A DNA stretch of 64,000 bases from Patescibacteria group bacterium (lineage in GTDB: Bacteria; Patescibacteriota; UBA1384; XYA2-FULL-43-10; 1-14-0-10-43-13): positions 2,321 to 66,320 of the forward strand of contig JBAYVE010000001.1 in assembly GCA_041674765.1 (NCBI GenBank). Reading direction: 5' to 3'. Within the stretch, counting starts at the first letter, position 1. Every line of letters starts with the position of its first letter. The translations under genes and the position numbers were made by a program. Below, one piece after another: positions 1-60,621 of this stretch. Under the pieces are notes generated by a model. That model did not search any database. It saw only the letters and a list, made by a program, of their open reading frames with translations, and was not told the DNA's origin.

Positions 1-470
1 TCTTGATATTTATGACCGGTGAACTCAGCAAATTTCTTGGCGATTAAATCGGATTGATTAAAGCCTCTTTGATTATAACGATTTTTATGAAGTGGTACGG
101 CAGTTATCAAGACTTCCTTTTTTGCTAATAATGACATTAAAGTTCGATTATCGATGCGCTTAACCAAGAGCATTCCGATAATCTCGGAAATACCGGTCAA
201 TCCGCTGTATTTGAGATGATGAATCATTTCCTTGACCGGACCTGCATCGTATTTTGATGCTACAACCAGGTAATCGATTGAAAAACCATTTCTACTACGG
301 CATTTTGCGCATATTTTTGAATTTTCCGATATTTTACCACAGGCAAAACAGGTATCCGTTTTAACCATTTCAATGTTTGACGCACAATTAAAGCATAAAA
401 AATCACCAAATTTACCGCAATTTACGCATCGCCTCGGGAAGAATAACTCCAGGCAAAATAAGTATAATGG
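1..470 (-). CDS. ComF/ComFC-family protein (phosphoribosyltransferase-type competence protein), 3' end cut by window start; start codon not resolved (no in-frame ATG found upstream of the zinc-finger region)
   Basis: Reverse-strand translation reads ...RCVNCGKFGDFLCFNCASNIEMVKTDTCFACGKISENSKICAKCR...VKEMIHHLKYSGLTGISEIIGMLLVKRID...ITAVPLHKNRYNQRGFNQSDLIAKKFAEFTGHKYQ. Multiple CxxC zinc-finger motifs followed by a PRTase-type core, typical of ComF. Not in the ORF track because it is partial and has no ATG. Confidence 0.5.
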
Positions 471-570
471 CCCAAGAAATAGCCCGTTAAATTTCTTGCA
501 CAAATAATTAGAACTCCACAGATGCCTTACTGTTGATAAAGTAGTTAATTGTTTCATAAAACCGCCTGTA

Positions 571-599: not shown

Positions 600-649
600 T
601 TTGTTATAAGTAGGATTTATCGAAATTGGATTTGGCTGAAAGGAGGGCA

Positions 650-1027
650 ATGAATGCAACAGATACTAATAATGACTGGCTTGCTGATGAAGCAGACGGT
701 CAACTTTCGATTGATGTCTACCAGGACGATCATAACATTTATATTTTAGCCCCAATTGCCGGGGTAAATGCAAGTGATGTAGACCTTTCTATCACAGATG
801 AAGTAATTACAATCAAAGGAACTAGAAAGCCGGGTCACTCGGAGCCAAATGATCAACACTTTACCCAGGAATGCTATTGGGGACCTTTCTCCCGTTCCTA
901 CGTCCTTCCCATAGCCGTAAATGCAGAGAATTCAAAGGCTAGTTTGAAAGACGGTTTGTTGACCGTAATAATTCCAAAGGATGAGAAAGTAAAGACCCGA
1001 TCTATCAAAATCAACGAAACGAAATAA
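650..1027 (+). CDS. Hsp20/alpha-crystallin family small heat-shock protein (likely start at ATG 650; ORF track begins at TTG 626)
   Basis: GQLSIDVYQDDHNIYILAPIAGV...LKDGLLTVIIPK matches the alpha-crystallin domain; AGGAGGG sits just upstream of ATG 650. Confidence 0.85.
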   Translation: MNATDTNNDWLADEADGQLSIDVYQDDHNIYILAPIAGVNASDVDLSITDEVITIKGTRKPGHSEPNDQHFTQECYWGPFSRSYVLPIAVNAENSKASLKDGLLTVIIPKDEKVKTRSIKINETK

Positions 1028-3478: not shown

Positions 3479-5968
3479 ATGGGAGGAACCAAAAGAAAAA
3501 TATTTGCATGGGCCATGGCGGCGATCATAGTTTCGTCAGCTGGTTTTTTATACTTCTCTCTTCCTCTCGCCAGTGCCGACAGAAATTTTCCAGCGACAGG
3601 GGACTATTCTGTCAACCACTATTTTAAATTTCATATCAATTCGAACGAATGGAAAATTATCCGCCAGGTAATGAATGCCGATAGTCAGGGTAAAAAATTA
3701 GGAGAAGAAGGGATAGGAGAAAATCAGCTTCGTGATCTAATTTACAACGGCAACAAACTCCTGATGGGTGATCCGGCCCAATTCACCTATGGCAGACTTT
3801 ATGTCTATGAGAAATTCGGGCAATCAGGTTTTGACTTTCCCCTGGATTTGAGCGGAAATAAACGCTCGGCATGGCTTTTGATCCAAGAAAAGATGAAAGG
3901 CGGACCAGATCTTCATGTTTCGGGTAATAAGAGAACGTTAACTCCAGAGGAAAAAGTATTTCTTACCGACGGAATTTCATATATTCATTATCAATTAGCC
4001 CCTCCTGCCACACCGGTAGTAGAAGCGCCGAAGCCTCCTGAGACCCCAGTCGTAACAGCGACAGTTGCGCCGGCAAAGCCTGTCAGGCCCGCGATTTTGG
4101 ACCTCCAATATTCTACTAGACACAAAGCCGGCCCGGATAGCCCGCTGGTCTTTGTAATTCCCAATGCGACAACTCAGCTCGGATCCGAGAGGGTCAAGAT
4201 TCTCTCAGACCCAAAGTATCCTTTGGGAGCGTTTATGTACAATAAGGCTAGCGACTCCCGTATAGCCGTTGACCCCGACACGCTCTTTCTACCCTATGGG
4301 CTAGAGGTCAGCGATCTTTCGGCTTTCAACAGTACTCACGCCGAGTTTATCAATGTAGTTATGGAAATATATAAGTCTATTATTGATAGAGTCCAGGCGT
4401 CGGGAAATACAACAGACGATCAGGCTAAGACCGATCTGAAAGCAGCTCAAACGGCTTATGAGGCTCTAATTGATTATGTCAGCAGCAATTATCAACCGAT
4501 TGATAGCCTACTAAACTTTTGGGCAGAAAAAGGAACCTATCTGAAGGGTGAGGACGTCGAGATCATCATCGGCATGCCGAGCGTTCCGTCAAATTGGAAT
4601 TATGTCTCCGTCAAGGTTACGGAAGCAGGTTATAAGAGTGCTACAGATAGTGCTCTTGCTCAAGATAACAACTATGGTATTTCTATTTATAATGATGACA
4701 TAACCAAGTTTCCCATTACCGACCCTACGACTGGGAAACGTGAGGAACATACCTTTTGGAAAACAGATGGTGATACTAAGGCCGGCTACCATGGCATATT
4801 GGCCCAGATTTGGGGTCCGAACGGTCCACTGCGAAGCAGGCGAATAGTGGTCAATCTAGAAGAATATAGCGCTGAGAACAAAATCAATGTCAGTAGTAAA
4901 TCGATAAATCAGGGTGATACTTTGAAAATTACCGCTGATATATCTGATCAACAGGCCAAGAGAGATTCCGGACTTAGCTGTTTTTTCTACATTAGCGATG
5001 GCTTGGCGCCAAATCCGAATAAGGATGAAGGGGGTTATTGGCTAAAAGGCGAGGGGATGGGTTATGCTCTTGATAAATGTGCTTTCGATTGGAACACGGA
5101 TACCAATACTACAGTCGGCCTGCATACAGTCGGCTTTACTTTGTTGAAAGTTGGCCTTCATCCAACTTTTATTAAGAAACCGGAAACCCCGCCATTTCCC
5201 TGGGTTTATACCCAGGTCAATGTCTGCAAAAAGGGGTCGTCTTCCTGCAACAGTGACATTCCGCTACTCGGTATCAGTGCTACCAACACGGCGATAAATC
5301 AAGGAACAAAAACGACAATCACCGGCCACATTTCCGATCCCAATTCGGAGGAGGTCAAAGGCAAGCAATGTTATTTCTATGTTGGCGACCGGACAGGCAC
5401 TAATACTTGGATTCCGATGGCCAAAAAAGATCTATCTGATTGTAAATACGAGTGGAATACTATAAATAGTGAGCCTGATCTCTACGGCTGGCGGGTCAAC
5501 CTTCAAGCTCCGGGATTGTCCGGCCCCGATACAAATCCTGAGGCAGAGCCAAAATCAAAAACTCTCTTTGTTAGAGTATGTGAAAAGAATGCCACCAGCT
5601 GCCAAGCCCCAAATCAGCCCGATAATCCCAATCCTCTAGATCCTGCAGGCGATGGCACGGCAATCGTTCCCTTCAATGCAGAGGTTTCATCTTCCTCATT
5701 GATTACAATCGCCGGTTTGACGGCAGATATACAGACACTAGAACAATTACTTTTCAAGACCAAATATTACTGGCTGCCTCTTTTTCTTGGTGTGCTCTCC
5801 TTCATCGCTATTCTTTTCGGTGGATTTATGATATTAACCTCGGGTGGAAACGAGGAGCAGGCAAAAAAAGGCAAAAATTCCATCCTCTACGGAGCGATCG
5901 GGCTTGCTATTGGCACCGTCTCTTATGTTATTATAATTATATTAATCCGTGATTTTATCAATAAATAG
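3479..5968 (+). CDS. Large secreted surface protein: signal peptide, Pro-rich linker, two tandem Cys-containing modules, and a C-terminal two-TM hairpin paralogous to the two downstream small proteins
   Basis: ATG 3479 with GGGGAG 8 nt upstream (ORF track used GTG 3470). Linker PPATPVVEAPKPPETPVVTATVAPAKPVRP. Repeated modules CFFYISDG...CAFDWNT and CYFYVGDR...CKYEWNT. C-terminus FLGVLSFIAILFGGFMILTSGGNEEQAKKGKNSILYGAIGLAIGTVSYVIIIIL. Confidence 0.6.
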   Translation: MGGTKRKIFAWAMAAIIVSSAGFLYFSLPLASADRNFPATGDYSVNHYFKFHINSNEWKIIRQVMNADSQGKKLGEEGIGENQLRDLIYNGNKLLMGDPAQFTYGRLYVYEKFGQSGFDFPLDLSGNKRSAWLLIQEKMKGGPDLHVSGNKRTLTPEEKVFLTDGISYIHYQLAPPATPVVEAPKPPETPVVTATVAPAKPVRPAILDLQYSTRHKAGPDSPLVFVIPNATTQLGSERVKILSDPKYPLGAFMYNKASDSRIAVDPDTLFLPYGLEVSDLSAFNSTHAEFINVVMEIYKSIIDRVQASGNTTDDQAKTDLKAAQTAYEALIDYVSSNYQPIDSLLNFWAEKGTYLKGEDVEIIIGMPSVPSNWNYVSVKVTEAGYKSATDSALAQDNNYGISIYNDDITKFPITDPTTGKREEHTFWKTDGDTKAGYHGILAQIWGPNGPLRSRRIVVNLEEYSAENKINVSSKSINQGDTLKITADISDQQAKRDSGLSCFFYISDGLAPNPNKDEGGYWLKGEGMGYALDKCAFDWNTDTNTTVGLHTVGFTLLKVGLHPTFIKKPETPPFPWVYTQVNVCKKGSSSCNSDIPLLGISATNTAINQGTKTTITGHISDPNSEEVKGKQCYFYVGDRTGTNTWIPMAKKDLSDCKYEWNTINSEPDLYGWRVNLQAPGLSGPDTNPEAEPKSKTLFVRVCEKNATSCQAPNQPDNPNPLDPAGDGTAIVPFNAEVSSSSLITIAGLTADIQTLEQLLFKTKYYWLPLFLGVLSFIAILFGGFMILTSGGNEEQAKKGKNSILYGAIGLAIGTVSYVIIIILIRDFINK

Positions 5969-5986
5969 TTATTATCTTCATAAACA

Positions 5987-6340
5987 ATGTTCCATTTGAT
6001 AGAAAAAGTCAGCGCTAAGAACCTCGGTGAAATCATCAAAGAGATGAATTTTACCGTATCAAACAGTCCTGTTCAGGCAAACAAAGATCATGACTGGGGT
6101 ACAATTTTGACCTTCGTTACAAGAGTGATGGAGATAGCCCTTGACTTTGCCGCTATCACTGCTGGTATAATGATGATGATGGGAGCGATAGGATATGCGA
6201 TGTCCTTTGGCGATGAAGCGAAGGCTGAGACAGCCAAGAAACAGCTTCTTTGGTCGATCATCGGATTGTTTATCCTTGCCGGCTCCAGGTTAGTTATCGG
6301 CTTTATCAGCCGTGAACTGACCGGTAAAGCATTACCTTAA
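5987..6340 (+). CDS. Small two-TM hairpin membrane protein; VirB2/TrbC-pilin-like topology is a hypothesis
   Basis: About 55-aa hydrophilic N-terminus, then AAITAGIMMMMGAIGYAMSFGDEAKAETAKKQLLWSIIGLFILAGSRLVIGFI. Shares the helix-loop(AKK)-helix core with the next ORF and with the C-terminus of the 832-aa protein. Confidence 0.45.
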   Translation: MFHLIEKVSAKNLGEIIKEMNFTVSNSPVQANKDHDWGTILTFVTRVMEIALDFAAITAGIMMMMGAIGYAMSFGDEAKAETAKKQLLWSIIGLFILAGSRLVIGFISRELTGKALP

Positions 6341-6365
6341 ATAAAAACTTAAAACTGGAGGAAAT

Positions 6366-6680
6366 ATGATCAGTCAACTAGTCGAAAAAGTAGTTGCAAG
6401 CTATAACACCAACAATGTCGCGGTGACCCCACTTTCTAGCAATCTTACCCTTACCAATTTACTGGATAAGGTTGTTCCGTGGGTAGCTATCATCGCAGGC
6501 ACATTAGCCTTCTTCTTTCTTGTCTACTCCGGCTTCCTGTATCTGACGGCCAACGGAAATCCAGACGCTGCGAAAAAAGGTCAGGCGGGTATTATCAACG
6601 CCATCATCGGCTTGGTCATCATCTTCTTGGCCTGGGGTATCACTACTGCGATCGTAAATCTGCTAGGTGGTAAAAGCTAG
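6366..6680 (+). CDS. Small two-TM hairpin membrane protein, paralog of 5987-6340; VirB2/TrbC-pilin-like topology is a hypothesis
   Basis: VAIIAGTLAFFFLVYSGFLYLTANGNPDAAKKGQAGIINAIIGLVIIFLAWGITTAIV; GGAGG SD 6 nt upstream of ATG. Confidence 0.45.
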   Translation: MISQLVEKVVASYNTNNVAVTPLSSNLTLTNLLDKVVPWVAIIAGTLAFFFLVYSGFLYLTANGNPDAAKKGQAGIINAIIGLVIIFLAWGITTAIVNLLGGKS

Positions 6681-8490: not shown

Positions 8491-8580
8491 GGTGAGATGC
8501 CCGAGAGGCTGATGGGGCTGGTCTCGAAAACCGGTAACCGGGAAACCGGTTCGTGGGTTCGAATCCCACTCTCACCGCCA
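8491..8580 (+). tRNA. tRNA-Ser (anticodon CGA), CCA-encoded
   Basis: Acceptor GGTGAGA/TCTCACC; anticodon arm CTGGT-CTCGAAA-ACCGG; long variable arm; T-arm GTGGG-TTCGAAT-CCCAC; discriminator G plus CCA. Closely resembles E. coli tRNA-Ser(CGA). Confidence 0.9.
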
Positions 8581-8670: not shown

Positions 8671-8910
8671 ATGAATTATTATGTTTATATTTTGGAACTT
8701 TGCGATAAATCACATTATATAGGATCCACGCCAGATATTGATAACCGTCTCAGGGAACACCAATCTGGTTATTGTCTTTCAACCAAAGGTAAATTACCGT
8801 GTATCATGATTTGGCATGGCTGTTTTAACGACAAATTGAAAGCTCTAAGATTTGAAAAATATCTTAAATCTGGTTCAGGCAGGGCGTTTCGTCATAAACG
8901 ATTTGAATAA
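8671..8910 (+). CDS. Small GIY-YIG nuclease-superfamily protein (UPF0213-like)
   Basis: YYVYILELCDKSHYIGSTPDIDNRLREH matches the GIY-YIG core (YVY...YIG...R..EH). Confidence 0.65.
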   Translation: MNYYVYILELCDKSHYIGSTPDIDNRLREHQSGYCLSTKGKLPCIMIWHGCFNDKLKALRFEKYLKSGSGRAFRHKRFE

Positions 8911-9203: not shown

Positions 9204-9233
9204 AAAAAAAGACCTCTTTCGAGGTCTTTTTTT
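9204..9233. terminator. Bidirectional rho-independent terminator (A7-GACCTC-TTTC-GAGGTC-T7), ends yidC
   Basis: Perfect 6-bp stem at 9211-9216 and 9221-9226, flanked by an A-run and a T-run, immediately after the yidC stop. Confidence 0.7.
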
Positions 9234-10158
9234 ATTTCTTGGTTCTGACGGTCACATTCACGCCGAGCTTCTTCTCAGTCTTATCAAGCCGCTTTTCATT
9301 TATCTTAGCAAGCCAATCCTTTTTCTTCTTCGGCGCTCCCAATAAACTATGTTTTTCTGCTGCCTTCAGTTCGCGGTCGATCTCCTGAACCACAGGATCA
9401 CTGTCAAGTTCCTTCCGAGCCTCCGCTCTCTCTTTTTTGTTATTTAGGATTTGTTTGTTGACATAAAGCTGCTGAACAATACTAAATACGGTAGTAACAA
9501 TCCAGTAAATAACTAGAGCCGCCGGCATTGATCTGCCAAAGAAAAGAGTAAAGACTGCCGGTAGAAAAAGCATTTGCTTGTTCATCATAGCCATAGGATC
9601 CTTTGGCTCGTCCTCGGCCTTCTTGTTTTTATCCTTTCTCGGCATCATCAGATAAGAGAGTCCCATCTGTAAGACTGCTGCGACTATCGGTAAAATCCAC
9701 TTATCAGGCTCAGAAAGATTGAAGCCCAAAAACATCTGGTTCATTGTTTCAGGATGGGGGATAAAGGAATATAAATCTTTGAAGCCTTCTTCGGTTAATC
9801 CGCTTCGAAAGACAGAGAAGAGAACCCAAAGAATCGGCAGTTGAATTAGGAGTGGCAGACATGAACCAAAAGGGGAGAAACCTTCTTCTTTGTACAGAGC
9901 CATCAACGCTGCTGATTGATCCTTCTGATCTTTGATCTCGCTCTTGATCTTATTAATCCGTGGTTGAAGTTCCATATTCTTGACTTGGGCGTGAGCAGCC
10001 TTCAGCGATGAAGGCAATAAAATAAGTCTGACAATAACCGTCAGAATAATAATCGCAACACCAATTGAATGACCCGGAACAGCCCATGCAAAAAGAATCA
10101 GCAAATTATATAACGGCTGATAAAGAAGAACGTGAAAAAAAGATTTAAATGCTTCCAT
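9232..10158 (-). CDS. yidC: Membrane protein insertase YidC (short monoderm type) with Lys-rich C-terminal tail
   Basis: Multi-TM core with conserved IVRLILLPSSLK...QP...; position downstream of rnpA-yidD; basic C-terminal tail. Confidence 0.85.
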   Translation of the reverse strand: MEAFKSFFHVLLYQPLYNLLILFAWAVPGHSIGVAIIILTVIVRLILLPSSLKAAHAQVKNMELQPRINKIKSEIKDQKDQSAALMALYKEEGFSPFGSCLPLLIQLPILWVLFSVFRSGLTEEGFKDLYSFIPHPETMNQMFLGFNLSEPDKWILPIVAAVLQMGLSYLMMPRKDKNKKAEDEPKDPMAMMNKQMLFLPAVFTLFFGRSMPAALVIYWIVTTVFSIVQQLYVNKQILNNKKERAEARKELDSDPVVQEIDRELKAAEKHSLLGAPKKKKDWLAKINEKRLDKTEKKLGVNVTVRTKK

Positions 10159-10183
10159 AAGATATAAATTAATTATTTATTGA

Positions 10184-10420
10184 TTATTTAATAGAGTCAA
10201 AACCGCCTTTACTCCATGGGTTGCAACGCAGAACACGCCAAGTTGATAAGGCCATGCCGTAAATAACACCTTTTTTTAGAATTGCTTCTTTGGCATACTC
10301 CGAGCAGGTTGGCGTAAACTTACAGTATCCGCCAGGATGACGATGCCTAAGCCAGCTATGATCAGGTGATAATGTTTTCTGGTATATGCCGATTAAAAAG
10401 ATAAGAAATTTCTTTATCAT
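10184..10420 (-). CDS. yidD: Membrane protein insertion efficiency factor YidD
   Basis: YQKTLSPDHSWLRHRHPGGYCKFTPTCSEYAKEAILKKGVIYGMALSTWRVLRCNPWSKGGFD is a canonical YidD sequence; overlaps rnpA by 4 nt. Confidence 0.85.
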   Translation of the reverse strand: MIKKFLIFLIGIYQKTLSPDHSWLRHRHPGGYCKFTPTCSEYAKEAILKKGVIYGMALSTWRVLRCNPWSKGGFDSIK

Positions 10421-10767
10421 TTTATCGCCCCAATTCTAGAAAGCCCGCAGGTAAGGTCTTTCTTGATATCTTCCCTGACCCGATCACCAGAGTAAGCCTC
10501 TTTTATCCCGATTATAATATCGAGTCCGCCTTTAATCTCCGATAGGTTATCCAGAATAAGCGCTCGTAATTGCCGCCGAAGAAAGTTACGCCTAGTAGCC
10601 CTTTTGTCAATCTTATTACTGATAATAAAACCAAACCGCGTAAGCGTCTGACTATTTGGATTTTGAGCAGCCCTAAGATAAAGATGGCCTGAGTAAACCG
10701 GCTTTGATAACTTAAATACTTTTTGAAAGTCTCTCTGCTTCTGTAAACGATTGTTCTTCTTAAGCAT
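10417..10767 (-). CDS. rnpA: Ribonuclease P protein component RnpA
   Basis: Basic about 116-aa protein NRLQKQRDFQKVFKLSKPVYSGHLYLRAAQNPNSQTLTRFGFIISNKIDKRATRRNFLRRQLR; position between rpmH and yidD. Confidence 0.8.
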   Translation of the reverse strand: MLKKNNRLQKQRDFQKVFKLSKPVYSGHLYLRAAQNPNSQTLTRFGFIISNKIDKRATRRNFLRRQLRALILDNLSEIKGGLDIIIGIKEAYSGDRVREDIKKDLTCGLSRIGAIK

Positions 10768-16173: not shown

Positions 16174-19100
16174 TTAGAACCCTACATGCGTCCAGACGGT
16201 CGTTTGGGTGTTGGCCCAGAGACCCTCTTTTGTTTTTGCTTTGCCCTCGCTATCAAAGCCAAGGCAGATGCCGTTGACAGCCAAAGCGTCTTTGCCAAGG
16301 CGTTGCTGGCAGATATTAGTCGAAACCATGTCATTCCAAAAAGTGACATCCTCTGAACGTCCAGTCATTATTTGTGTTGGGATAAGGGCTTCGCCGGTCG
16401 AATCGTTGTATTTACTGTCGTACTGAATAGAAAGGACGTCTCCGATCAATCTCCTGGCCTTATATTGAGCCGCTAGAATTTTCTTTTTTTCCAATGTCTT
16501 ATTCAGGGCTGATGAATGGGCGGCATTTCCGCCGAAAACGCCTATGCCGGAGATATCATTTTTTTGCATTGCAGAGGAAGGAATTGTAAAATTATTCACC
16601 GGTGTATCAAGAAGGGATAAAGGATCACCCGACAAATTTATGTTTTGGTTTCCAGAAGATCTGCCGCTAAGTTTATCCCAGAAACTAGAAGGAGGAGAAG
16701 AGTCCTTATAAGGGTAATATCCATCAACAGAGCACCAATACTCAACACGGTAAGTAGAGAAGAGATTGATGGCCAGAAAAGTCAGGAGTGTTATAGCGAT
16801 TGTTACCGGATCGACCATCGGAATTATCCAGGCGCCAGCGATAGCATGGGCTGCAATAGCGATACTGGCATATGCAGCGGTGCTTACTAACACCATCAGA
16901 CTACCTGGCACAAGATTTAAGTCCTCTTCCCAGCCCGAGATCGTTTCGCCAAGGTACTTTTCAACTAGATAATCAATCGTCATTTGAACAATAATCTGGA
17001 AGGCTGCAGCTCGAAGGGCTTTGGCATTATCAACTTTGATTTGCTCGACCGTTTCTGCGGCCTGGGCATTCTCCAGATTTGTTTGGAATCTTTGTACCTG
17101 GCCGGCCATGCCGGCGTTTACTGCCTCGTCATATAGCCGTTGGGCTTCTTGGACATTTTCGGTTGCAGTTTGAAGAGACTTTTGGGCGCTTCGAAGAGCC
17201 TGATTCGCTTTATAAGCGTCGATACCTGACTTCGCAAGTCTAAAGGATGTGCCTTCTGAGACACCGAGAGCCCTGTCAGCCCAATTAAATACTCTTCCGA
17301 CGCCCCAATTCACAATAGCCTGTCCGAGCGTTGGAACAGATGCTCCGCCGATAGTTTGATTGGCATTGCCCTGAATTCCTTCGAAGCTGAAGGAATTAAT
17401 ACCCCAGTCATTGGTTGAAAGTCCGACTAAAATTCCCTTGGCCATATCGGGAGTGATTGAGAAGCGAAAAATCTTCTCAAAGCCTTTAGCCATATAATTC
17501 GCAAAATATTGAAAAGACTGACCGTTGTTTACCTTGATTAGAGTCTCTAAGGCAGCCATATTGTTGCCTTGGATCATACTGCTAGCATAAACCAGAATAT
17601 CGCCCCACTCCTGAACATTCTTTACGGCGTCAAATTTGACGCCAAATAAGTGACCGTTTGTCACTCCTCGTTTGACATATTTGACGATAGCAGCAGTCTT
17701 GATTTCTCCATTGCCTTTTATAATTGCCTCTGCAAAGCCAGGATAAATATTTGTGTCCAGCTTCCAAAGTCCGATATCCAGAGCTCGGTATTCGAGAATC
17801 TCAATAGCACGGTTTTTGGCTGATCCATTGACATCTTGGACGTCTGCGGCGTTAGCTCTTGAAGGATCGTTTAGAGTGTTAAGTTTCCTCTCCAAAGGTT
17901 CTACTCTAATCGCCTGTTCATCTTGAATACACGAATTAATCTTATGTTGTTGCTCATACCTATCCGTACACGAGTTTTTAATCGAAGTATTTTCCCTATT
18001 TATCTGAGTTTGGAGATCGACTTTTGCCTGTTCATACTTTTCAGGGGTGTAGTCATACTGTCTTTCGACGGTGGCTTGCACACTTTCAACCGGTGATTTG
18101 AAAGCATCTACCTGACCGAGACAATCAATGCCTTTTGCAAAATCATTGCCGCCCGTCTTTGCGCATTCCGGAGCCCCCGGAGCGTACTCAGTTACCTCGG
18201 GATTGGCCGAGTTACCAGTAGCATCCTTGTAGGCTGCTAGTTTTTGAGCGCTTTTGGTAGATAGACCATAAATTGAGTTACGGATCATCTCATATGTGAT
18301 AAAAAACTCTGCCGGGATAGGAGTCTTTGTATCAACGCCATCGATTTTTTTGATTGCATAATTGGAGGTCAGTGCCATAGTAATAACGCTGATCGCTCTG
18401 TTGCTATCTCGGCCAAAGAGATCTTTCAAATCAGCGGTTGGGACATCAACGCCGATAAAAACACCGCCGATTGTTAAATTGGCAATCTTTTTATGCAGCT
18501 GTTCTATCGCTGCGTTTTGGAGCCAAAGCCGGGCCCGATCTGCCAAGACTTCATTTTTTGGAATTGTACCTTTATCGATATCCTGTTTTTGGGCAATCGA
18601 TCTTCTGGCCGTGATTTTGCATTCTGTCTCTTGTGCATTTAGAGCGTTGATTTGCAGTACGGCATCATCTCTGTCTGCTACGGCATTTTCATATTCATCT
18701 GAACCGACAACGGTCTTGGATATCTCTTTTTCTGCTCCCGACTTGATCAGCGCCAGTCTAAGTTGCTCATCTGCATAAGTGGCCCGACACTGATCATCGG
18801 CACTTTTTACATCAGTTGGCAGAAGGGCTTTATAAATTCCGCTAAAAGATGCTTGGCTGGTGCTATTTAGATCGGCCTGTTCATCAAGCTTGGCTGCTAT
18901 GACTCCCATCATCGTTGAATAGGCGGTATCAGGATTCTCGATTATACTTAAAATTGTGGTTTGCGGAATGCTCAATTTATCTGCAAGTTTATATTTGAAT
19001 AAATTAGTCAAACCGTCGAAGAGCAAGGCATAATTCTTATAATCAGGGTTACTACTCTCTCCAGATATAGAGAATGTTGGCGCAGTAAAGATTGCCCTGA

Positions 19101-22100
19101 GGGCAGTCACAGTTTTCTTCGCGCCTTCTTCCTGTTCCACACTTAGATCAAAAATGCCGCACAGACGATCAACAGATACATCAAGGATGCGGTTTTTTAT
19201 AAGGGAATTTCCGGCTTCTTCTATATATTCCGAAGGTGTTATCTTGCCGTAGAGAAGCTGATAGGTGCCGCCGGCCTTTAAAGAAAAAGTATTGTCAAGC
19301 TGAGCGATAAAGCGGATATACGCAGAGACTCGTGCATTCTGAGTAATATCATTGCTATCGGTAGTGCTGGGTAAAATAGTCAAAGCATCAGTTATATTTA
19401 TTGTTAGCTCATTCTGAAGCTCAGAAAGCGCATCAAAAGCATCATTACTAAGCATTGGCGTGCCCTGAACATATTTCTGCAAGCGAAGAAGTTGATAAGA
19501 GATATCCGAATTCTTAATAAGAGCATACTGTTCGCCCATAATACGGGACATCTTCCCCTCATCCTTCAAAGCCCAGAGAAAAGGAATTTTGAAAGCAGCG
19601 GCAAAGTTTATCGGCTTTACATTTCTAATGATTTCTTCAATATCGTCTCCATGAAAGGTTCCGCGAGGAATGCCAAGTGTTTCTTCAATCTTGGCCTGGC
19701 CGATATTTGAGATAAAGCTATCAATAGTTTTTCCTTTAATCGGGACATAATCTAGTCCAAAGAGCCCGCCCAAGAAAGTGCCGCCGGCTTGGGCAAATGC
19801 ACAATCTCTGGCATCGGTTGTGAGAGCAGTATAAATTAGATAAGTTGTACCAGTTTTTAGTTCCATCTCCTGATCAAGATAACCGGAAGCAATCCGACCG
19901 GCAGATGAATAGTCGCCATTCAAAAGATCAAACATATCCCCGGCATCAAAAAGGTCCGGATCGACGGAAAAGGGGAGATTATCAAACAATTTGTAAGTAA
20001 AGATTTTGGCGGCTTCTTTCTCTCCGACCAATTGTTTATAGTTGGCTACTGAATTTTTAAGATGATTCCTCACAAAAAGTTTTTCTAGCAAGGTAATCGG
20101 AAGGCCAGTACTCCTATAAATCTCATTAATGACGATATTACTTGTATTTGCCTCTCCAAACGCGTATTGCATAGAGGGATCGTTTACAAAATTCTCTAAA
20201 TTGGAGTGAAAAATCTCGAAATCCCAACCAGGGAAAGCTCTACTTAGGCCATAAGAAATTTCATATAGAATACTAATGATTTGCTGCTCTTTGTGATTAT
20301 TTGCATAGTTTTGAGCTTCCTCTCTGCTTTCAAAACAGTGCCGGCCTTCCTTATCGTAATAACAGAACGAATTGTTCTGTAAGGTCGTCTCATTTACGGA
20401 GAATCCTTCTTTTTGGGTGTAGATAACTTTACAGCTGCTCTCTTTGTTATCATCGGCATACGGATTTGCATTGATGTAATCTACGAGCCTATCACTACCG
20501 TACTCATCTGCTTCGCTGGGCAGAAGTTCTCCGTTGAGCATCTGGATATACTTCTCCAAGGCGTTTTTGCTGATTTTTAATATTGAAGCCTCAATCAAAT
20601 TCTTCTGTTTGTTGGTTAGACTGGCCGATGTCAAGGTTTTCTCTTCAGTAAATAGAGATTTTGTGGAACCTTTTAGAACATCAAAATTTTTATCTGCCTT
20701 CTCAGCAGTTGAGTTGGCTTCGCTCCATATTCCAGAATTTCCACTCTTCAAGGCCTCATAACTGCCCATCGGCAAGCCCATACGGAACAACAAATCATTT
20801 TCTGGTGTTCTGATATTATCGCCAAATTTTCTATTGGAGATATTCTCAACGATATCATCCAGATCGTTTTCCTTCGTTAGCAAGCCGTTCTGGTCTTTGA
20901 GCTTTGATTGAAAGTCTTGTTTCCAACGAGTTGTTGCCGCATCGACAAATTTTTTAAATTGGTCGGGGTTATCCTTCTTTAATTTACGGAAATAATCAAC
21001 CGTTAATCTCTCTCTGGTTTGGGATAGCCGCTTAAAGAATTCATCAAATTTACTGAGTTTTACCGTGTCGCCGAAATACGCTGATAATATTTCAGGCCCT
21101 GCCCATCTCATCAAAGCTTCAAAATCTTTCTTGAAGTCAGGCGGGGTCTTGGATATGGAGGCGCCCTGAAAGTAGAAGAAAGGCATATTATAATGTTCCT
21201 CGATTCTTGCTTGACCGATCGCTTGCATAAAGGCATCCTGACCGGTGACTCCTCTTTTTTCAAAGTTCTCGACAAAATAAATTAGGGAGTTGCTGGGAAG
21301 ACCCAATTTAGCCTCGGCGGTGTTGGCTCCGAGGGTGACAAACAGATCAGACACACCAATTTTTCCGGCGATGAAGTTAAAAATAATCTTTGCTATTTGA
21401 AAGGTAGTCAATTTTTTACTTTTTCGCCGTCCATCGCCAGAATCAGTGTTTTGGGTGGAATCGAGGCCTGGCTTTATCTGATTTATGGTTAATAAATCAG
21501 AGGGAATTTCTTTGCCTGCCATGATCTCGCTGATAGCTCTGATCAGTTCGTTTACGTCAGTGATTAGAATGTTTACTCGGGCAGCCTTCTCATCATATTC
21601 ACTGGTTTTCTTCATCTCATACACCTGCTTCAGCGCCAGAAGATTTTTCTGGAGGTCGGCGAGATCGGTAGCAATTACACTAGCCGAATTAATAATCCCC
21701 TGAAGCTTTGAGAGATCGCTATCGTTCTTTAAAAGATCCCTCAAAGAACTCATAGTTTTTTCAACCTTGTCAGAAATCTCACGTATCTCAACATCATCAG
21801 ATTTTAGAGCTTCCCATTCGCTGTTGATCTTACTTTGTAGCTCATAGACCTTAAGAACTCTAGCTAAGTAGAAGCCAAGTTCCTTGTTGTTGGTTGAGAG
21901 TTCCGGATCTAGATTAAGGAGATCAATTTTGGTTTTATCTTCATCATCCAATAATTTGTTGGCCAGTCCGTAATAAAGCAATTTTGAGCCGATTCGTTCA
22001 AATACATTCTCAGCATTTGCGTTAGCATATCCCATCATAAGAAAAAGATCGAAGTCTTCCAAACCGGCTGTTTTAGCTTTTGTTTTTGGGATATTAAAAT

Positions 22101-24717
22101 CTTGAGAATAATCTTTACTTTGAGCCTCGCTTGAATCCTGAGTTTTATATTGGATCCGGAAATTTACGGTCTGACTGAGCGCACAAATACTTTGTTGTCG
22201 CTTCTTTTCAATCTCGTCACTGATCTCAATATTTCCGGCATCTGTGTGAATCGTAATATTAATCTGTTCGGCCGGACGTTGGCAGGCATCTTTGGCAGTA
22301 ACTTTGGCTAAATTACCTCGAAGCCACTCTCTAAAGGTTAGATATCCCAAGTCGCCAGGATTGTATTCCACCTCCTGGCCATTTTCGATGGCAAATATCT
22401 TATCAATAGTTTCACCTTCGTTTAGGAACTTTGTACTGTCTAGATGAGTGGAATCATCTCCGAGCCGCCGTGCCAGCGTGTAGATGCCGATAGTTTGGTA
22501 GGCACTTCTACTGCCGGAAATAGCTTGTTCCCAAGTGCCGTCCGGTAGTTGATAGGCGCTATTCGTCATGGCGAAGTATTTCAAGCCGAAACTCGTGTCG
22601 TGCTTACGGGATTCCCCGACTATGTTGGCATATTCGGCCGCAGTGAAGGGCTTTGCGTGATCATTTGGATTGTGACCGTTCGTAAAAAGCGAAGTTGTCC
22701 CTGGCTGAATATGCAGGAGGTTATCAATATAGCCTGCATTGTTGCGGAAGATCTGAGTGCGGACAGAATTTAAGCTATCGTCTAAATCATTGAAAGACGT
22801 TGCATCCGTAGGCCAACTTTCCTTTGGCAAGTTTAACTTTGCTTCGATAATCTTGGCGCCGACGAGTGTCGCAAACATCGTACCGTCATTTAGATTATCA
22901 AGATCGCCGGCACGAAGATTCATCTCTGCTTCAACTTTGCGCTGTCCAATATTTTCCAGCAAACCGAAAAGATTATTCTTGACTTCCTTTCCGGCCTGGA
23001 AGTCATTATCAAGGGAACCAAAGGGAAGACCAAGCCTTTTTTCGATTGCAGATCTACCAATGACGTATTTGAGCGCTGTCAGGTCTGTAATATCGGTATC
23101 TGTCAGTATTTCTCTTGGAAGACCTAAATAGTCAGCCAGATAAACGCCTCCCAAATTTTTCAGAGTGTCCTCGACATCGCTACCATGAATAGAGTTTGTA
23201 GGCGAGTTAATGATATTAGCAAAGAGTGATTGGCCTAGAAGAGAAACAATATCATCCAAGCCGGCGCTTGAGAGATCGCCATCATAACTGCTAAATTGAG
23301 GATTCATGGCAGACAATAGATCGAGAGCGCTCTGAGATGCCATTTGTCTCATCGTCTCCATCAAATCCGTGCCAGTGTTTGTATTTGATCTCCGATAGCC
23401 ATCAGTTGTCTGCCATGCCAATTTGATCGGTTGGGCAGCCTGAGGTTCCTTGAAATCATGGCCGATCCTTCTTTTCTTTAGGACGGTGCAACGGACGTCG
23501 TCAATCTCGGTGATATCAACTGCCTGACCATTGTAGTGTGCAGAGATATTTCTGCTATTCTTCAGTGCCGGATCACTGTCCTCGAGAATCTCAGCGTTTT
23601 TCAAATCTTCATAATAAGCGTCATATTCCTGACCGTCTTTATCCTCGATTGTAAAACTATTGGCTTTTGCCCCGCATTCCGCGGCACTTTCATCTAAAGA
23701 GCAGACAACGTTTGAGTTGGTAATAGAACCGTTCAATTGTTCTCGTATCACATCTGACTCATTTGAATCGGTGTCGTTCTGGAGGATTCTGTTGGCCTTA
23801 ATTCTCCAATGACCTCCTCCTCCCTGGTCTTTTGGTGTGATTAAGTAAATCAGCGTCTTCAAAACTCTGATATCGATAGTCGGGGCCGAGATAGCATCAG
23901 AAATCAAATCGGCGACATATTCCTTATTGTTGTCACTTAATAGCTTGCCTTGGAGAGTATTGCTATCGATACCGGTGATGCACGAGAGAGTATTAAAATT
24001 GGCAAGATTTGTTTTGCCGGTTGCTTTAATTCGAGCCGCCTCCTCTTCCCAAAGGCCTTTCAACTTTTTATCACCGAAGTTTTTTTCCGCGAGAGAAACC
24101 AGATCCCTGAATTGCTGATGGTTGGAGATAGTCTCCGTCGCAGTAATACCGGTACCGTTTTGAAGCCAGGTTAGATATTGGAATTCATCTAGATATCTAG
24201 GACTCTCCTTGGTCTTTTCGGTATTTACCTGGTCATAAATCTTGTTCCGATTATCTGCAGGCAAAATTGCAAAAAGATTGAACAAGTCGTTATTGAAATC
24301 AGGCATAATATCGCTCATGCATTTGAGCTTTTTGAGAGATTCGATATCTTTCTTAGCTAAAACTAATCTTGCGTCAGAGGACGGTCCGAAAATGTCGTCC
24401 ACGGATAAAAGACTATCAGGATTGGTATAATAACTAATCAATTCCGCGAGCTGCTGATAGGCCTCTGACTGACCGAATTTTTTACAAACTTCTGAGTTAT
24501 TAGTTTCGGGCAGAGTGAACGTGAAATTTTGCTGAATGGTTATTGAATTAAGTCTGATCAGATCCGGTCTGTTCTGGGCAATATAGTCAGAAGAATCCAA
24601 ACTATCGATTTCGGTTGAAGGGATATCTGCAGCCTGTGCCCAGCTTAATAGAAAAGGATTTAGTATAATGACGACAGAGATAACTGCAAATAATAACTTT
24701 TGAAAGAATATCTTCAT
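16174..24717 (-). CDS. Giant (2847 aa) secreted surface protein, membrane-anchored by C-terminal TM helices; last gene of the T4SS-like operon; function unknown
   Basis: Single uninterrupted ORF. Signal peptide MKIFFQKLLFAVISVVIILNPFLLSWAQA. Recurrent motif (I/L)E(A/E)KLGLP at least 8 times. SAHYNGQAVDI motif (M15-peptidase-like SxHxxGxAxD). Coiled-coil segment. Hydrophobic helices SLMVLVSTAAYASIAIAAHAIAGAWIIPMV...ITLLTFLAINLF about 215 aa from the C-terminus. ATG overlaps the upstream gene stop (ATGA). Confidence 0.7.
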   Translation of the reverse strand: MKIFFQKLLFAVISVVIILNPFLLSWAQAADIPSTEIDSLDSSDYIAQNRPDLIRLNSITIQQNFTFTLPETNNSEVCKKFGQSEAYQQLAELISYYTNPDSLLSVDDIFGPSSDARLVLAKKDIESLKKLKCMSDIMPDFNNDLFNLFAILPADNRNKIYDQVNTEKTKESPRYLDEFQYLTWLQNGTGITATETISNHQQFRDLVSLAEKNFGDKKLKGLWEEEAARIKATGKTNLANFNTLSCITGIDSNTLQGKLLSDNNKEYVADLISDAISAPTIDIRVLKTLIYLITPKDQGGGGHWRIKANRILQNDTDSNESDVIREQLNGSITNSNVVCSLDESAAECGAKANSFTIEDKDGQEYDAYYEDLKNAEILEDSDPALKNSRNISAHYNGQAVDITEIDDVRCTVLKKRRIGHDFKEPQAAQPIKLAWQTTDGYRRSNTNTGTDLMETMRQMASQSALDLLSAMNPQFSSYDGDLSSAGLDDIVSLLGQSLFANIINSPTNSIHGSDVEDTLKNLGGVYLADYLGLPREILTDTDITDLTALKYVIGRSAIEKRLGLPFGSLDNDFQAGKEVKNNLFGLLENIGQRKVEAEMNLRAGDLDNLNDGTMFATLVGAKIIEAKLNLPKESWPTDATSFNDLDDSLNSVRTQIFRNNAGYIDNLLHIQPGTTSLFTNGHNPNDHAKPFTAAEYANIVGESRKHDTSFGLKYFAMTNSAYQLPDGTWEQAISGSRSAYQTIGIYTLARRLGDDSTHLDSTKFLNEGETIDKIFAIENGQEVEYNPGDLGYLTFREWLRGNLAKVTAKDACQRPAEQINITIHTDAGNIEISDEIEKKRQQSICALSQTVNFRIQYKTQDSSEAQSKDYSQDFNIPKTKAKTAGLEDFDLFLMMGYANANAENVFERIGSKLLYYGLANKLLDDEDKTKIDLLNLDPELSTNNKELGFYLARVLKVYELQSKINSEWEALKSDDVEIREISDKVEKTMSSLRDLLKNDSDLSKLQGIINSASVIATDLADLQKNLLALKQVYEMKKTSEYDEKAARVNILITDVNELIRAISEIMAGKEIPSDLLTINQIKPGLDSTQNTDSGDGRRKSKKLTTFQIAKIIFNFIAGKIGVSDLFVTLGANTAEAKLGLPSNSLIYFVENFEKRGVTGQDAFMQAIGQARIEEHYNMPFFYFQGASISKTPPDFKKDFEALMRWAGPEILSAYFGDTVKLSKFDEFFKRLSQTRERLTVDYFRKLKKDNPDQFKKFVDAATTRWKQDFQSKLKDQNGLLTKENDLDDIVENISNRKFGDNIRTPENDLLFRMGLPMGSYEALKSGNSGIWSEANSTAEKADKNFDVLKGSTKSLFTEEKTLTSASLTNKQKNLIEASILKISKNALEKYIQMLNGELLPSEADEYGSDRLVDYINANPYADDNKESSCKVIYTQKEGFSVNETTLQNNSFCYYDKEGRHCFESREEAQNYANNHKEQQIISILYEISYGLSRAFPGWDFEIFHSNLENFVNDPSMQYAFGEANTSNIVINEIYRSTGLPITLLEKLFVRNHLKNSVANYKQLVGEKEAAKIFTYKLFDNLPFSVDPDLFDAGDMFDLLNGDYSSAGRIASGYLDQEMELKTGTTYLIYTALTTDARDCAFAQAGGTFLGGLFGLDYVPIKGKTIDSFISNIGQAKIEETLGIPRGTFHGDDIEEIIRNVKPINFAAAFKIPFLWALKDEGKMSRIMGEQYALIKNSDISYQLLRLQKYVQGTPMLSNDAFDALSELQNELTINITDALTILPSTTDSNDITQNARVSAYIRFIAQLDNTFSLKAGGTYQLLYGKITPSEYIEEAGNSLIKNRILDVSVDRLCGIFDLSVEQEEGAKKTVTALRAIFTAPTFSISGESSNPDYKNYALLFDGLTNLFKYKLADKLSIPQTTILSIIENPDTAYSTMMGVIAAKLDEQADLNSTSQASFSGIYKALLPTDVKSADDQCRATYADEQLRLALIKSGAEKEISKTVVGSDEYENAVADRDDAVLQINALNAQETECKITARRSIAQKQDIDKGTIPKNEVLADRARLWLQNAAIEQLHKKIANLTIGGVFIGVDVPTADLKDLFGRDSNRAISVITMALTSNYAIKKIDGVDTKTPIPAEFFITYEMIRNSIYGLSTKSAQKLAAYKDATGNSANPEVTEYAPGAPECAKTGGNDFAKGIDCLGQVDAFKSPVESVQATVERQYDYTPEKYEQAKVDLQTQINRENTSIKNSCTDRYEQQHKINSCIQDEQAIRVEPLERKLNTLNDPSRANAADVQDVNGSAKNRAIEILEYRALDIGLWKLDTNIYPGFAEAIIKGNGEIKTAAIVKYVKRGVTNGHLFGVKFDAVKNVQEWGDILVYASSMIQGNNMAALETLIKVNNGQSFQYFANYMAKGFEKIFRFSITPDMAKGILVGLSTNDWGINSFSFEGIQGNANQTIGGASVPTLGQAIVNWGVGRVFNWADRALGVSEGTSFRLAKSGIDAYKANQALRSAQKSLQTATENVQEAQRLYDEAVNAGMAGQVQRFQTNLENAQAAETVEQIKVDNAKALRAAAFQIIVQMTIDYLVEKYLGETISGWEEDLNLVPGSLMVLVSTAAYASIAIAAHAIAGAWIIPMVDPVTIAITLLTFLAINLFSTYRVEYWCSVDGYYPYKDSSPPSSFWDKLSGRSSGNQNINLSGDPLSLLDTPVNNFTIPSSAMQKNDISGIGVFGGNAAHSSALNKTLEKKKILAAQYKARRLIGDVLSIQYDSKYNDSTGEALIPTQIMTGRSEDVTFWNDMVSTNICQQRLGKDALAVNGICLGFDSEGKAKTKEGLWANTQTTVWTHVGF

Positions 24718-26120
24718 TTTAGCGATAAAGCATACTTAATACGGGACCACAAATAATCGCCCCAATCCTTCGATTCGTTTTGATTATGGTCGATTTTATC
24801 TACTTCTGTGGTTGTTAGACAGACATTGCAGTAGCTCATTTCAATATGAAGCTGCGAATAATTGCCAATTTTTACTGTTTTTCCGATCGGCTTATTTAAG
24901 TCAGTAATCTTTTGTCCTTTTACTACAGAGGGATCAAAATTTGCGTACAAGAGGAGATAGTCACCGTTTTGGATAGCTATCTTCTTATGGCCCGTCCCAT
25001 CATCAGAAACATCAATGACCTCGCCGATCATACCGGGGTAGACGTTGTTACCTTCGGTGGTATACAAATCGACGCCGTCACATTTATTTTGGCCGAAGTA
25101 AATATAAGTTCCGTGACCCAGATCATCGCTCGGTGTAGTCGGTCGGAGTGGTGTTCCGGTGTGAAGTTCACTGTTTGTGCCGATGATTTTGGCCTTTTCA
25201 ATCGGATAATGTCCATTGATAGCAGGAATGCTATTATCTATTTTTTGTAGAACATTTTTTATAGCATCAAAAATTTCCTGACCTAACTCGACATTACCGG
25301 CAGCCGCTTGATTGACCTTTGTGAGAGCGCTATCGATCTCATTCTTGATATTTTGATCTGTCGTCTCCTCCTTTAGCTGAGTTAGTAAGAGCTGTAATTT
25401 TGTCGTTAGCTCTTTCTTTGATTGCTTTTGGATTTCAGGGTCTTTGACTGCGAGGAGTGTAGCCTCAATAACTGATTTATTATCAATCGGCATGGCGGGA
25501 GTAGTGGGAGTTTGGCCGCCGGCCCCACTCTTATAAAATCTAAGGGAGAAAGCCAGCATGCCGATGGCCATAGCCAGTATTACGACGACTAAAATGATAC
25601 TCCAGCTTCCGCCGAGGAGTCCGGCTATCCAGGCCCAGATTCTAACAATTGCAGCTACAAATCTTTTTGTTACTTTTTCTTCGAATTTTTGTTTTAAATC
25701 ATCAGCTATTCTTCTTGCTTTTCCGGCTCTAGCGTTTTGTTGATTAGTGTCTTCTCTAGAAGCATTTGGTTCTTGTCCTTGTTCAGGACCATTTTGGATG
25801 TTAGCCGCTCCCGTCTTTCGGGCGGTTCCCCCCTGATTGGCATATGGATCGGTTTTATCATCGCCAGGAAGAATCTGATCTGGAGAGATCTCGGGGTTGT
25901 CGGGTACCCTTTGCGGTAAAGGGGGCGGCTGTGATTCTTGTTCCCAAATCGGATCGTCAATCTCGCGGTTTAGAAAAGGATCGTCTTGAGCGCCAGGAAC
26001 TCCTTTGCCCTGATTGCGCAGACGTAAATATGAATCTCTAGCGCCCTCCGACTGAGACTTCATGTAGTCTTGTCGGTATTTGCGCATCTGTTTTTTGATA
26101 GATTGTAGTCTTTTATCCAA
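24714..26120 (-). CDS. Membrane-anchored protein with C-terminal M23/LytM-like peptidase domain (possibly degenerate)
   Basis: Basic cytoplasmic N-terminus; TM (WIAGLLGGSWSIILVVVILAMAIGML); C-terminal ...GTNSELHTGTP...VVKGQKITDLNKPIGKTVKIGNYSQLHIEM resembles the M23 core (…VKKGQ.V..GQ.IG..G.TG.STGPHLHFE). Confidence 0.45.
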   Translation of the reverse strand: MDKRLQSIKKQMRKYRQDYMKSQSEGARDSYLRLRNQGKGVPGAQDDPFLNREIDDPIWEQESQPPPLPQRVPDNPEISPDQILPGDDKTDPYANQGGTARKTGAANIQNGPEQGQEPNASREDTNQQNARAGKARRIADDLKQKFEEKVTKRFVAAIVRIWAWIAGLLGGSWSIILVVVILAMAIGMLAFSLRFYKSGAGGQTPTTPAMPIDNKSVIEATLLAVKDPEIQKQSKKELTTKLQLLLTQLKEETTDQNIKNEIDSALTKVNQAAAGNVELGQEIFDAIKNVLQKIDNSIPAINGHYPIEKAKIIGTNSELHTGTPLRPTTPSDDLGHGTYIYFGQNKCDGVDLYTTEGNNVYPGMIGEVIDVSDDGTGHKKIAIQNGDYLLLYANFDPSVVKGQKITDLNKPIGKTVKIGNYSQLHIEMSYCNVCLTTTEVDKIDHNQNESKDWGDYLWSRIKYALSLK

Positions 26121-31518: not shown

Positions 31519-31932
31519 TTATTGTTTAATCAGAACTTTTCCCGTGTCATACTTCTTCGCTATATTGCTTATTTCATCATGACTGACATTCTTGTGCTGA
31601 ACCGTCGTTCCTTTCTTCTCGACATGATATATTTCTATCCTCAGATCGGAATCATCACCTTGGTGCCAGACCCTTTTTTTCGGTTGGGATACATAGGCAA
31701 TAGCGGCTTTAAAGAAATCCAAGAAAGGGCGCTCATTGATCTTGATGAAATCCAAGCAGATGACAAATACCGCAATCGGTGTGATCAAAATATAGGAAAA
31801 CGGCTTGGGGATAGCAGAATAAATGGCATATGAACAGCCAAAGCCAATTACGGCATAGATAAACTGAACCATTGTTAATGGCCCGAGGACTCGATCTTTC
31901 ATATCGATATTTTGCGGAACTTTATACCTCAA
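31519..31932 (-). CDS. Small two-TM membrane protein, VirB3/PrgI-like (position and topology)
   Basis: 137 aa; MKDRVLGPLTMVQFIYAVIGFGCSYAIYSAIPKPFSYILITPIAVFVICLDFI hairpin; lies immediately upstream of the VirB4-N gene, as VirB3 does in T4SS loci. Confidence 0.4.
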   Translation of the reverse strand: MRYKVPQNIDMKDRVLGPLTMVQFIYAVIGFGCSYAIYSAIPKPFSYILITPIAVFVICLDFIKINERPFLDFFKAAIAYVSQPKKRVWHQGDDSDLRIEIYHVEKKGTTVQHKNVSHDEISNIAKKYDTGKVLIKQ

Positions 31933-52166: not shown

Positions 52167-52167
52167 A

Positions 52168-53238: not shown

Positions 53239-53247
53239 AGGTTAGAG

Positions 53248-60614: not shown

Positions 60615-60621
60615 GGATTTT

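Follow-up and report, generated by a model that had tools for sequence, protein, structure and literature searches.

This study concerns a 64-kb stretch of chromosomal DNA around the replication origin of an ultrasmall Patescibacteria bacterium (candidate phyla radiation, CPR), here called the window, and within it a trio of consecutive open reading frames (ORF1, ORF2 and ORF3) whose products each end in the two-helix hairpin of a pilin family associated with type IV secretion systems (T4SSs). ORF2 and ORF3 are small pilins, whereas in ORF1 the hairpin closes a long protein that begins with a signal peptide and carries a large ectodomain. The gene of a solute-binding-protein-fold lipoprotein lies directly upstream of the trio and that of a PilB-type ATPase directly downstream; the coordinates of these and other features are collected in Table 1. 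The public gene calls agree with the trio (829, 117 and 104 amino acids, aa). For ORF1, the likely start is the ATG at 3479, which has GGGGAG about 8 nucleotides (nt) upstream, so that the length of 832 aa given in an initial annotation of this DNA is better read as 829 aa. The start of ORF3 is secure, because its frame is closed by a stop 8 codons upstream and the ATG is preceded, at 5 nt, by a GGAGG ribosome-binding site.

The three proteins are paralogous in their C-terminal cores. The last 110 aa of ORF1 align by BLAST with ORF3 (41% identity over 59 aa, E = 1.9e-11) and with ORF2 (28% over 74 aa, E = 2.6e-5); ORF2 against ORF3 alone is weak (22% identity, E = 0.024), and one clade profile hidden Markov model (HMM) matches all three, with E from 7e-17 (7.4e-17 for ORF1) to 8e-25. 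Hydropathy places two hydrophobic segments and a short Gly/Lys loop at the end of each protein, and AlphaFold predicts helix-loop-helix hairpins (in ORF3 the helices span aa 29-60 and 66-99, in ORF1 aa 754-786 and 792-828). The pairwise alignments, the shared HMM and the common Pfam family PF18895 thus bear out the paralogy proposed in the initial annotation, as hydropathy and modelling do its two-transmembrane hairpin topology.

Membership of the trio in the T4SS_pilin family is secure. ORF3 (55.6 bits) and ORF2 (28.8 bits) score above the gathering score of PF18895 T4SS_pilin (26.6 bits), and ORF1 is placed in the family by the clade HMM and by its BLAST match to ORF3; NCBI names both ORF1 and ORF3 'pilin'. 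All three also match the same region of the 80-position NCBIfam model NF045849 (E = 5e-8 to 5e-5), with scores of 22-32 bits, under its cut-off of 40. For PF04956 TrbC/VirB2 (gathering score 27.9 bits), the Pfam scan gave only E = 0.034 and 14.8 bits for ORF3 and no match for ORF1 or ORF2. An HMM built from ORF3 homologues was run on every ORF of 80 related loci and the window and found 344 pilin-domain ORFs. When 125 small members were scanned against Pfam, all 125 matched PF18895, and 35 of them also matched PF04956 at E <= 0.01 (best E = 8e-9). The reading of the trio as VirB2/TrbC-pilin-like is hence supported by PF18895, by the sub-threshold NF045849 matches and by a family bridge to PF04956 that runs through the 35 relatives and not through the trio itself. 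Homologues keep the loop and helix-2 motif GNPDAAKKGQ.GIINAIIGL almost unchanged. None of the trio's N-termini shows a type IV prepilin signal (short basic leader, G/FTLIE), as had been noted initially; the L-I-E-K of ORF2 has no preceding Gly and no hydrophobic stretch after it.

It could be argued that the hairpins belong to small membrane proteins of an unrelated kind, such as holin-like ones, and that their likeness to pilins is compositional, since helical hairpins are low in information, fold searches with them are non-specific, and weak Pfam matches to several unrelated membrane families occur (E of at least 0.01). With two of the three proteins above the PF18895 gathering score, a nearly invariant loop/helix-2 motif, and arrays conserved across phylum-level diversity together with co-occurring T4SS genes, this explanation is hardly credible. 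A holin or phage origin was likewise rejected, given the strong profile evidence for a pilin family and the absence of any phage context.

ORF1 is the most unusual member of the trio. Its N-terminus has a KRK n-region, a hydrophobic core and an A-S-A/D cleavage site, and aa 4-26 are modelled as a helix. The earlier claim that the trio lacks classical signal peptides is therefore correct for ORF2 and ORF3 but not for ORF1 (aa 1-33), while the view that the 829-aa protein is secreted gains from the same Sec-type signal. In the structure model (20-sequence alignment; mean predicted local distance difference test score, pLDDT, 65), the order from the far end inward is an orphan tip, a Pro-rich linker, a mixed helix/strand domain (aa 206-340), a β-rich region (aa 345-465) and tandem β-sandwich modules, after which a further linker separates module 2 from the hairpin, the sole hold on the ectodomain. 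Residues 27-205, which have pLDDT <50 and no homologues, are probably disordered, and both the Pro-linker (about aa 174-205, rich in Pro, Thr and Val) and the Cys-repeat ectodomain of the initial annotation were recovered. The Cys modules, of about 120 aa and four cysteines apiece, lie in tandem, are 28% identical to each other (E = 3e-11) and are well predicted (pLDDT 80-94). C501, C534, C655, C701 and C708 are invariant in 20 homologues, and extracellular disulfides would fit this invariance. Fold matches of the ectodomain are strings of immunoglobulin (Ig)-, macroglobulin (MG)- or fibronectin type III (FN3)-like domains, e.g., the MG domains of complement and α2-macroglobulin, S-layer proteins and the adhesin FdeC.

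Given the Sec-type signal peptide and the β-sandwich modules with invariant cysteines, the ectodomain of ORF1 must lie outside the cell, and the topology of ORF1 is therefore N-terminus out, loop in and C-terminus out, which is the VirB2 topology. An ordinary integral hairpin with large cytoplasmic leaders, which had been named as the case against pilins, is contradicted for ORF1 by these same features. In the hairpin, G771, G782 and G790 are invariant and D791, K797 and K799 nearly so; this retention of the Gly, Asp and Lys positions of the family argues that the fused hairpin works like the free pilins.

A word-indexed search with ORF1 returned only ORF1 itself, and it took an exhaustive search over 1.84 billion representative proteins to reveal a family with Cys modules and pilin hairpin. 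This search gave 1,856 representative matches at E <= 0.001, nearly all via the hairpin, and the combination of Cys modules and hairpin is common to about 25 representatives. Among the 150 matches listed, none besides ORF1 itself covers aa 34-425. The Cys-module region is shared with protein L009_518 from a related locus (33% identity over 351 aa, E = 1.6e-42). In locus L001, the 696-aa protein at the syntenic place was considered as an orthologue of the ectodomain and rejected, as only the pilin hairpin aligns.

The close relatives with enough sequence (loci L001, L002, L004, L009, L010 and L013) all have a similar operon order, namely, the binding protein, an optional small pilin, the large pilin, an ORF2-type pilin and one or more ORF3-type pilins, except that the binding protein was not detected in L013. 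The conservation of the trio that had been put up for checking is thus found in every close relative as the order large, ORF2-type, ORF3-type, and of the 16 metagenome loci that extend downstream, 11 show the large pilin followed by two or more small ones. Identity between positional orthologues is 51-58% for ORF3-type, 31-41% for ORF2-type and 36-41% for the hairpin of the large protein, and every position best matches its own counterpart in the close relatives. As the gene order is kept in all of them, the three genes are, on this comparative evidence, specialised paralogues and not redundant copies. ORF3 is the most conserved of the trio and the candidate main subunit; with 51-58% against 60% for DnaA and PilB in L001, it evolves about as slowly as DnaA. 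The ectodomains of the large proteins, on the other hand, fall into at least four families unrelated by BLAST, plus singletons, among these close relatives. Such a replaceable ectodomain, on a conserved anchor and in a fixed slot, is expected of a host-contact determinant, and a pilin whose ectodomain is rapidly exchanged at a set place in the operon is a concrete candidate for host recognition.

These comparisons also bear on whether the members of the trio might be main pilins that substitute for one another and are kept for antigenic or host-range variation. Such a role has been proposed for Patescibacterial arrays by analogy with the VirB2 paralogues of Bartonella and Anaplasma (PMC12102498), and the very divergent paralogues found here (22% identity between ORF2 and ORF3) could be taken in its favour. 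However, the order is conserved and every close relative has a positional counterpart for each paralogue, pointing to old specialised roles; ORF3 is highly conserved, and variability is concentrated in the ectodomain of ORF1. Interchangeability of the three is accordingly quite improbable.

ORF2, ORF3 and their orthologues in L001-L013 begin with a conserved motif of about 10 residues, M-x(1-3)-[LIF]-[IV]-x-K-[AVI]-x-A (5987-6016 in ORF2 and 6366-6398 in ORF3), followed by some 15-25 variable residues and then the first membrane helix. An upstream extension of ORF3 is impossible. Before the first membrane helix, ORF3 has about 31 aa and ORF2 about 46 aa, fewer than the 50-60 aa of the hydrophilic leaders initially described. 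In most other lineages the pilins keep a signal peptide of 25-35 aa, and the first small pilin of the L002, L010 and L013 operons also has one, as does ORF1. Since the signal peptide is missing, insertion and processing of ORF2 and ORF3 may differ, and small pilins of this kind point to another insertion or processing route.

Regarding expression, the best sigma-70-like match of the region (5910-5937, forward strand; TTGGCA, 16 nt, TATAAT; 11/12 consensus positions) sits some 50 nt ahead of ORF2, still within the 3' end of ORF1, and as a candidate promoter it could raise expression of the small pilins. It is not conserved at the equivalent place in L001, and an internal promoter for ORF2 and ORF3 therefore stays an unverified match. 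At the other end, ORF3 and the PilB-type ATPase gene (reverse strand) converge without a spacer: their stop codons overlap as CTAG at 6677-6680, inside the palindrome AAAAGCTAGCTTTT.

Upstream of the trio, the 459-aa lipoprotein matches SBP_bac_8 PF13416 (85.2 bits, E = 9e-24) and SBP_bac_1 PF01547 (69.5 bits, E = 6.6e-19), and its nearest solved structures are, weakly, sugar-binding proteins. Homologues (24-54% identity) stand directly upstream, on the same strand, in 31 of the 57 arrays with enough flanking DNA, across classes, and four further loci have the binding protein, one pilin, a gap and then six pilins. All 38 binding-protein homologues in the sampled loci hold the position ahead of the pilins. 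Reciprocally, with the binding protein as query, pilins lie immediately downstream in 16/16 metagenome loci with downstream DNA, a single-protein scan that reached only the close clade. The gap between binding-protein stop and pilin start has a median of 4 nt and does not exceed 50 nt in 44 of 54 cases. The binding-protein gene is probably co-transcribed with the trio, and this spacing indicates that it is translationally coupled to the arrays across many Patescibacteria classes. Genes further upstream vary by lineage (GalU; a methyltransferase with GyrA; SMC), so that it is the junction between binding protein and pilins itself that is conserved. Arrays without a binding protein mostly adjoin virB4, virB6 and prgI. 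No ATP-binding cassette (ABC) permease or ATPase was found in the window, and none among the gene families that recur as neighbours in the 80 loci, members of which were scanned against Pfam. The lipoprotein may bind a glycan or another ligand at the base of the structure. Such an orphan sugar-type lipoprotein coupled to pilin arrays is a testable lead as to whether the machine exports, adheres or imports.

This association suggests an alternative in which the hairpins are membrane anchors or an oligomeric platform that never leave the membrane and form, with the binding lipoprotein, a ligand-capture or uptake complex independent of any T4SS; ORF1 would then be a stalked surface protein held by a pilin-like hairpin. 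In this lineage the link between binding protein and pilins (31/57, 16/16, gap of 4 nt) is tighter than that between T4SS and pilins, the junction is conserved despite the varying genes upstream, the array lies 22 kb from virB4, and there is no nearby ABC permease to explain the binding protein otherwise. Set against this, other classes have the family beside virB4, virB6 and prgI without a binding protein, the family is related to TrbC/VirB2 pilins, and the genome of the window encodes a T4SS; moreover, we know of no two-helix hairpin that serves as partner of a solute-binding protein. This explanation is the main rival and, on balance, unlikely.

The T4SS genes form a monoderm-type block on the reverse strand (Table 1), and VirB4, VirB6 and PrgI genes recur directly beside pilin arrays in other loci and classes. 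The trio was initially placed 10 kb from a VirB4/VirB6 operon; this distance holds for the edge of the block (16174), at 9.5 kb, but not for the virB4-like gene itself, which lies beyond dnaA at a distance of 22 kb. The 2847-aa ORF stands last in the block, at its downstream end, after genes for the M23 peptidase, a β-propeller protein and the CHAP/SLT hydrolase, and a homologue is found at the same place in L003. The PilB-type ATPase is indeed the neighbour of the trio, as initially stated, in convergent orientation. A functional link to it was set aside, because the two are hardly ever neighbours outside the close clade, the genes are convergent and the trio has no type IV prepilin signal.

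Table 1. Features of the pilin locus and its surroundings (positions within the 64-kb window)
Feature	Position	Strand	Description
ORF1	3479-5968	+	829 aa: signal peptide, ectodomain and C-terminal T4SS_pilin hairpin; NCBI 'MAG: pilin' (MAG, metagenome-assembled genome)
ORF1 signal peptide, aa 1-33	3479-3577	+	MGGTKRK...PLASA/DR; from sequence and hydropathy
ORF1 Pro/Thr/Val-rich linker, ~aa 174-205	3998-4093	+	in low-confidence region aa 27-205
ORF1 Cys module 1, aa 468-585	4880-5233	+	β-sandwich; C501, C534, C583, C590; pLDDT 80-90
ORF1 Cys module 2, aa 597-705	5267-5593	+	β-sandwich; C631, C655, C701, C708
ORF1 pilin hairpin, aa 754-828	5738-5962	+	helix, loop SGGNEEQAKKGKNS, helix
ORF2	5987-6340	+	117-aa pilin; N-terminal motif MFHLIEKVSA; PF18895 28.8 bits
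ORF3	6366-6680	+	104-aa pilin; starts MISQLVEKVVA; PF18895 55.6 bits; NCBI 'pilin'
Solute-binding-protein-fold lipoprotein, 459 aa	2081-3460	+	lipobox LSGC
Monoderm-type T4SS gene block	16174-37718	-	Pfam matches; presumed assembly machinery
2847-aa ORF	16174-24717	-	no Pfam match; downstream end of T4SS block
M23 peptidase	24714-26120	-	Pfam
CHAP/SLT hydrolase	27480-28691	-	Pfam
VirB4-like ATPase	28696-30732	-	Pfam
VirB6-like protein	30509-31495	-	Pfam
PrgI/VirB3-like protein	31519-31932	-	Pfam
tRNA-Ser(CGA)	8491-8580	+	between pilB and yidC
rnpA, yidD, yidC	9232-10767	-	
dnaA	11474-12868		then dnaN, recF, dciA

Taken together, the reading put forward here is that the trio is the pilin set of a VirB2-like operon, giving a T4SS-built filament or stalk with ORF3 as the main subunit and ORF1 as a rare or tip adhesin, a proposition that we regard as evenly balanced. 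Once in the membrane, each hairpin would have both termini on the outside and its basic loop (G-N/D-x-x-x-A-K-K-G) on the cytoplasmic side. From there the T4SS, whose VirB4-, VirB6- and PrgI/VirB3-like components are encoded at a distance of 10-30 kb, would extract the hairpins into a short filament or stalk, in which ORF2 would be a second structural subunit next to ORF3, and ORF1, as a rare or tip subunit, would project its N-terminal ectodomain outward for host contact. Filament formation, display on the filament and T4SS dependence are the steps that we infer. Several observations weigh against this account. ORF1 scores 21.9 bits with PF18895, under the gathering score, and ORF2 and ORF3 are without the Sec signal peptide typical of the family. 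A PDB sequence search with ORF1 and a profile search with the pilin alignment gave nothing relevant, the profile searches missing even the solved VirB2 and TraA structures, and fold searches with the hairpin models are so non-specific that thousands of other helical hairpins match. A bulky N-terminal domain of 720 aa may find room in a helical packing only at a tip. The array here has no virB4 next to it and is instead linked to the binding-protein gene and the convergent PilB gene. Lastly, to our knowledge, no filament attributable to these pilins has been seen in any Patescibacterium.

A more far-reaching version, which is improbable as a whole, would have the binding protein and the pilins form a distinct Patescibacteria apparatus, i.e., a conjugation-type pilus repurposed for uptake from the host cell. 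It would comprise a VirB2-like filament or channel with an exchangeable adhesin-pilin fusion as determinant of host range, a sugar-type lipoprotein that docks and captures or imports host-derived molecules, and the 10-residue N-terminal motif as a new sorting or processing signal.

Beyond the trio, the arrays vary in build. Pilin arrays in related loci have 2-10 members. Larger proteins are common among the 344 pilin-domain ORFs: 61 reach 200 aa or more, and 15 reach 500 aa or more. Some single ORFs are 'poly-pilins' with 2-8 tandem T4SS_pilin hairpins, namely, L079 8534-11149 (871 aa, 6 domains), L051 1687-3387 (566 aa, 5 domains), L025, L035 and L057 (2 domains each) and P0030 (820 aa, 8 matched stretches); some of the contigs are labelled archaeal, and many such proteins occur in the representative search. 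Others have the reverse architecture, with the hairpin near the N-terminus and a long C-terminal extension, i.e., L052 1220-6976 (1918 aa), L045 6292-8172 (626 aa), L061 8326-9855 (509 aa) and, at about 286 aa, L012, L016 and L018. Paceibacteria-type loci have one reverse-architecture gene after virB6, virB4 and two unknown genes, beside yidC, rnpA and dnaA.

As for the setting, NCBI protein records carry the same products as 'MAG: ... [Patescibacteria group bacterium]', and the closest species representatives are labelled Berkelbacteria, with some labelled Saccharibacteria, possibly by mistake. An Hsp20 gene (626-1027, forward strand) and a gene with faint ComF-like Pfam marks (1-557, reverse strand; DZR_2/Pribosyltran) recur beside pilin arrays in 21 and 20 loci, respectively, in differing arrangements (upstream, or convergent downstream), which may be more than backbone synteny. 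Between pilB and yidC, a stand-alone 79-aa GIY-YIG nuclease-domain ORF (8671-8910, forward strand) follows tRNA-Ser(CGA), and a 253-aa ORF (46090-46851, reverse strand) joins an N-terminal Phd/YefM antitoxin domain to a long extension without a family match. A sugar-nucleotide or nonulosonic-acid-type biosynthesis cluster (47656-63082, forward strand) encodes UDP-glucose dehydrogenase, NeuB, a DegT aminotransferase, a thiamine pyrophosphate (TPP) enzyme, epimerases, a GT2 glycosyltransferase, UDP-GlcNAc 2-epimerase and a CMP-type cytidylyltransferase, and may serve surface or pilin glycosylation.

Pilin arrays are already known from Patescibacteria, and the trio is not new in its basic identity, as it belongs to a known, already annotated family with published arrays. 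Saccharibacteria have arrays of 4-6 small signal-peptide proteins related to VirB2 (McLean 2018, 10.1101/258137), and in S. epibionticum a pilin series within the T4SS cluster is essential (Wang 2023, PMC10633639). A survey of 3,035 genomes reported 441 arrays of 2-11 pilins, T4SS genes often near dnaA, and 'no adhesins' (Quiñonero-Coronel 2025, PMC12102498), and a 2025 review regards a pilus in these monoderms as possible, proposed but unproven (PMC12857230). The T4SS and its pilin arrays are thus essential for epibiotic growth in the one species tested, and an adhesin has not yet been assigned to them. The trio resembles these arrays in family, tandem arrangement, proximity to dnaA, the monoderm-type T4SS in the genome and the lack of a recognised relaxase, in this case within the window. 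It differs in that it is not beside virB4 and is coupled to a solute-binding lipoprotein gene, in that one member, of 829 aa, unites a signal peptide and an ectodomain with the pilin, and in that ORF2 and ORF3 have the 10-residue motif instead of the signal peptide of the published proteins (10.1101/258137). In the literature searched, no description of the fusion, the binding-protein coupling or small pilins without signal peptide was found, and no paper combining Patescibacteria, a solute-binding protein and a pilin.

Like TrbC/VirB2/TraA (PF04956; F, T and RP4 pili), the trio combines small size with two helices joined by a short basic loop and is expected to have both termini outside and the loop inside, and there is the partial profile bridge (35/125); unlike them, it belongs to a monoderm host, has no long cleavable leader in ORF2 and ORF3, and reaches PF04956 only weakly and with ORF3 alone. 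We know of no canonical VirB2 with a large N-terminal domain; in canonical systems adhesion comes from a separate protein (VirB5, TraN or PrgB). The Mbov_0395 family (NF045849) of Mycoplasma integrative conjugative elements is similar in its pilin-like hairpin and its wall-less or monoderm lineage, and differs in that the trio scores below its cut-off and lies in no integrative conjugative element. Adhesin-bearing minor pilins, e.g., type IV large minor or tip pilins and the tip adhesins of sortase pili, likewise combine a polymerising module with a variable adhesive domain, contain β-sandwich units and are encoded beside the main subunit. The polymerising module of ORF1 is unrelated to theirs, and it has no class III signal peptide, G/FTLIE or LPXTG. 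If ORF1 does act at the tip of a T4SS-built filament or stalk, it would be the adhesin that surveys of Patescibacterial T4SSs did not detect.

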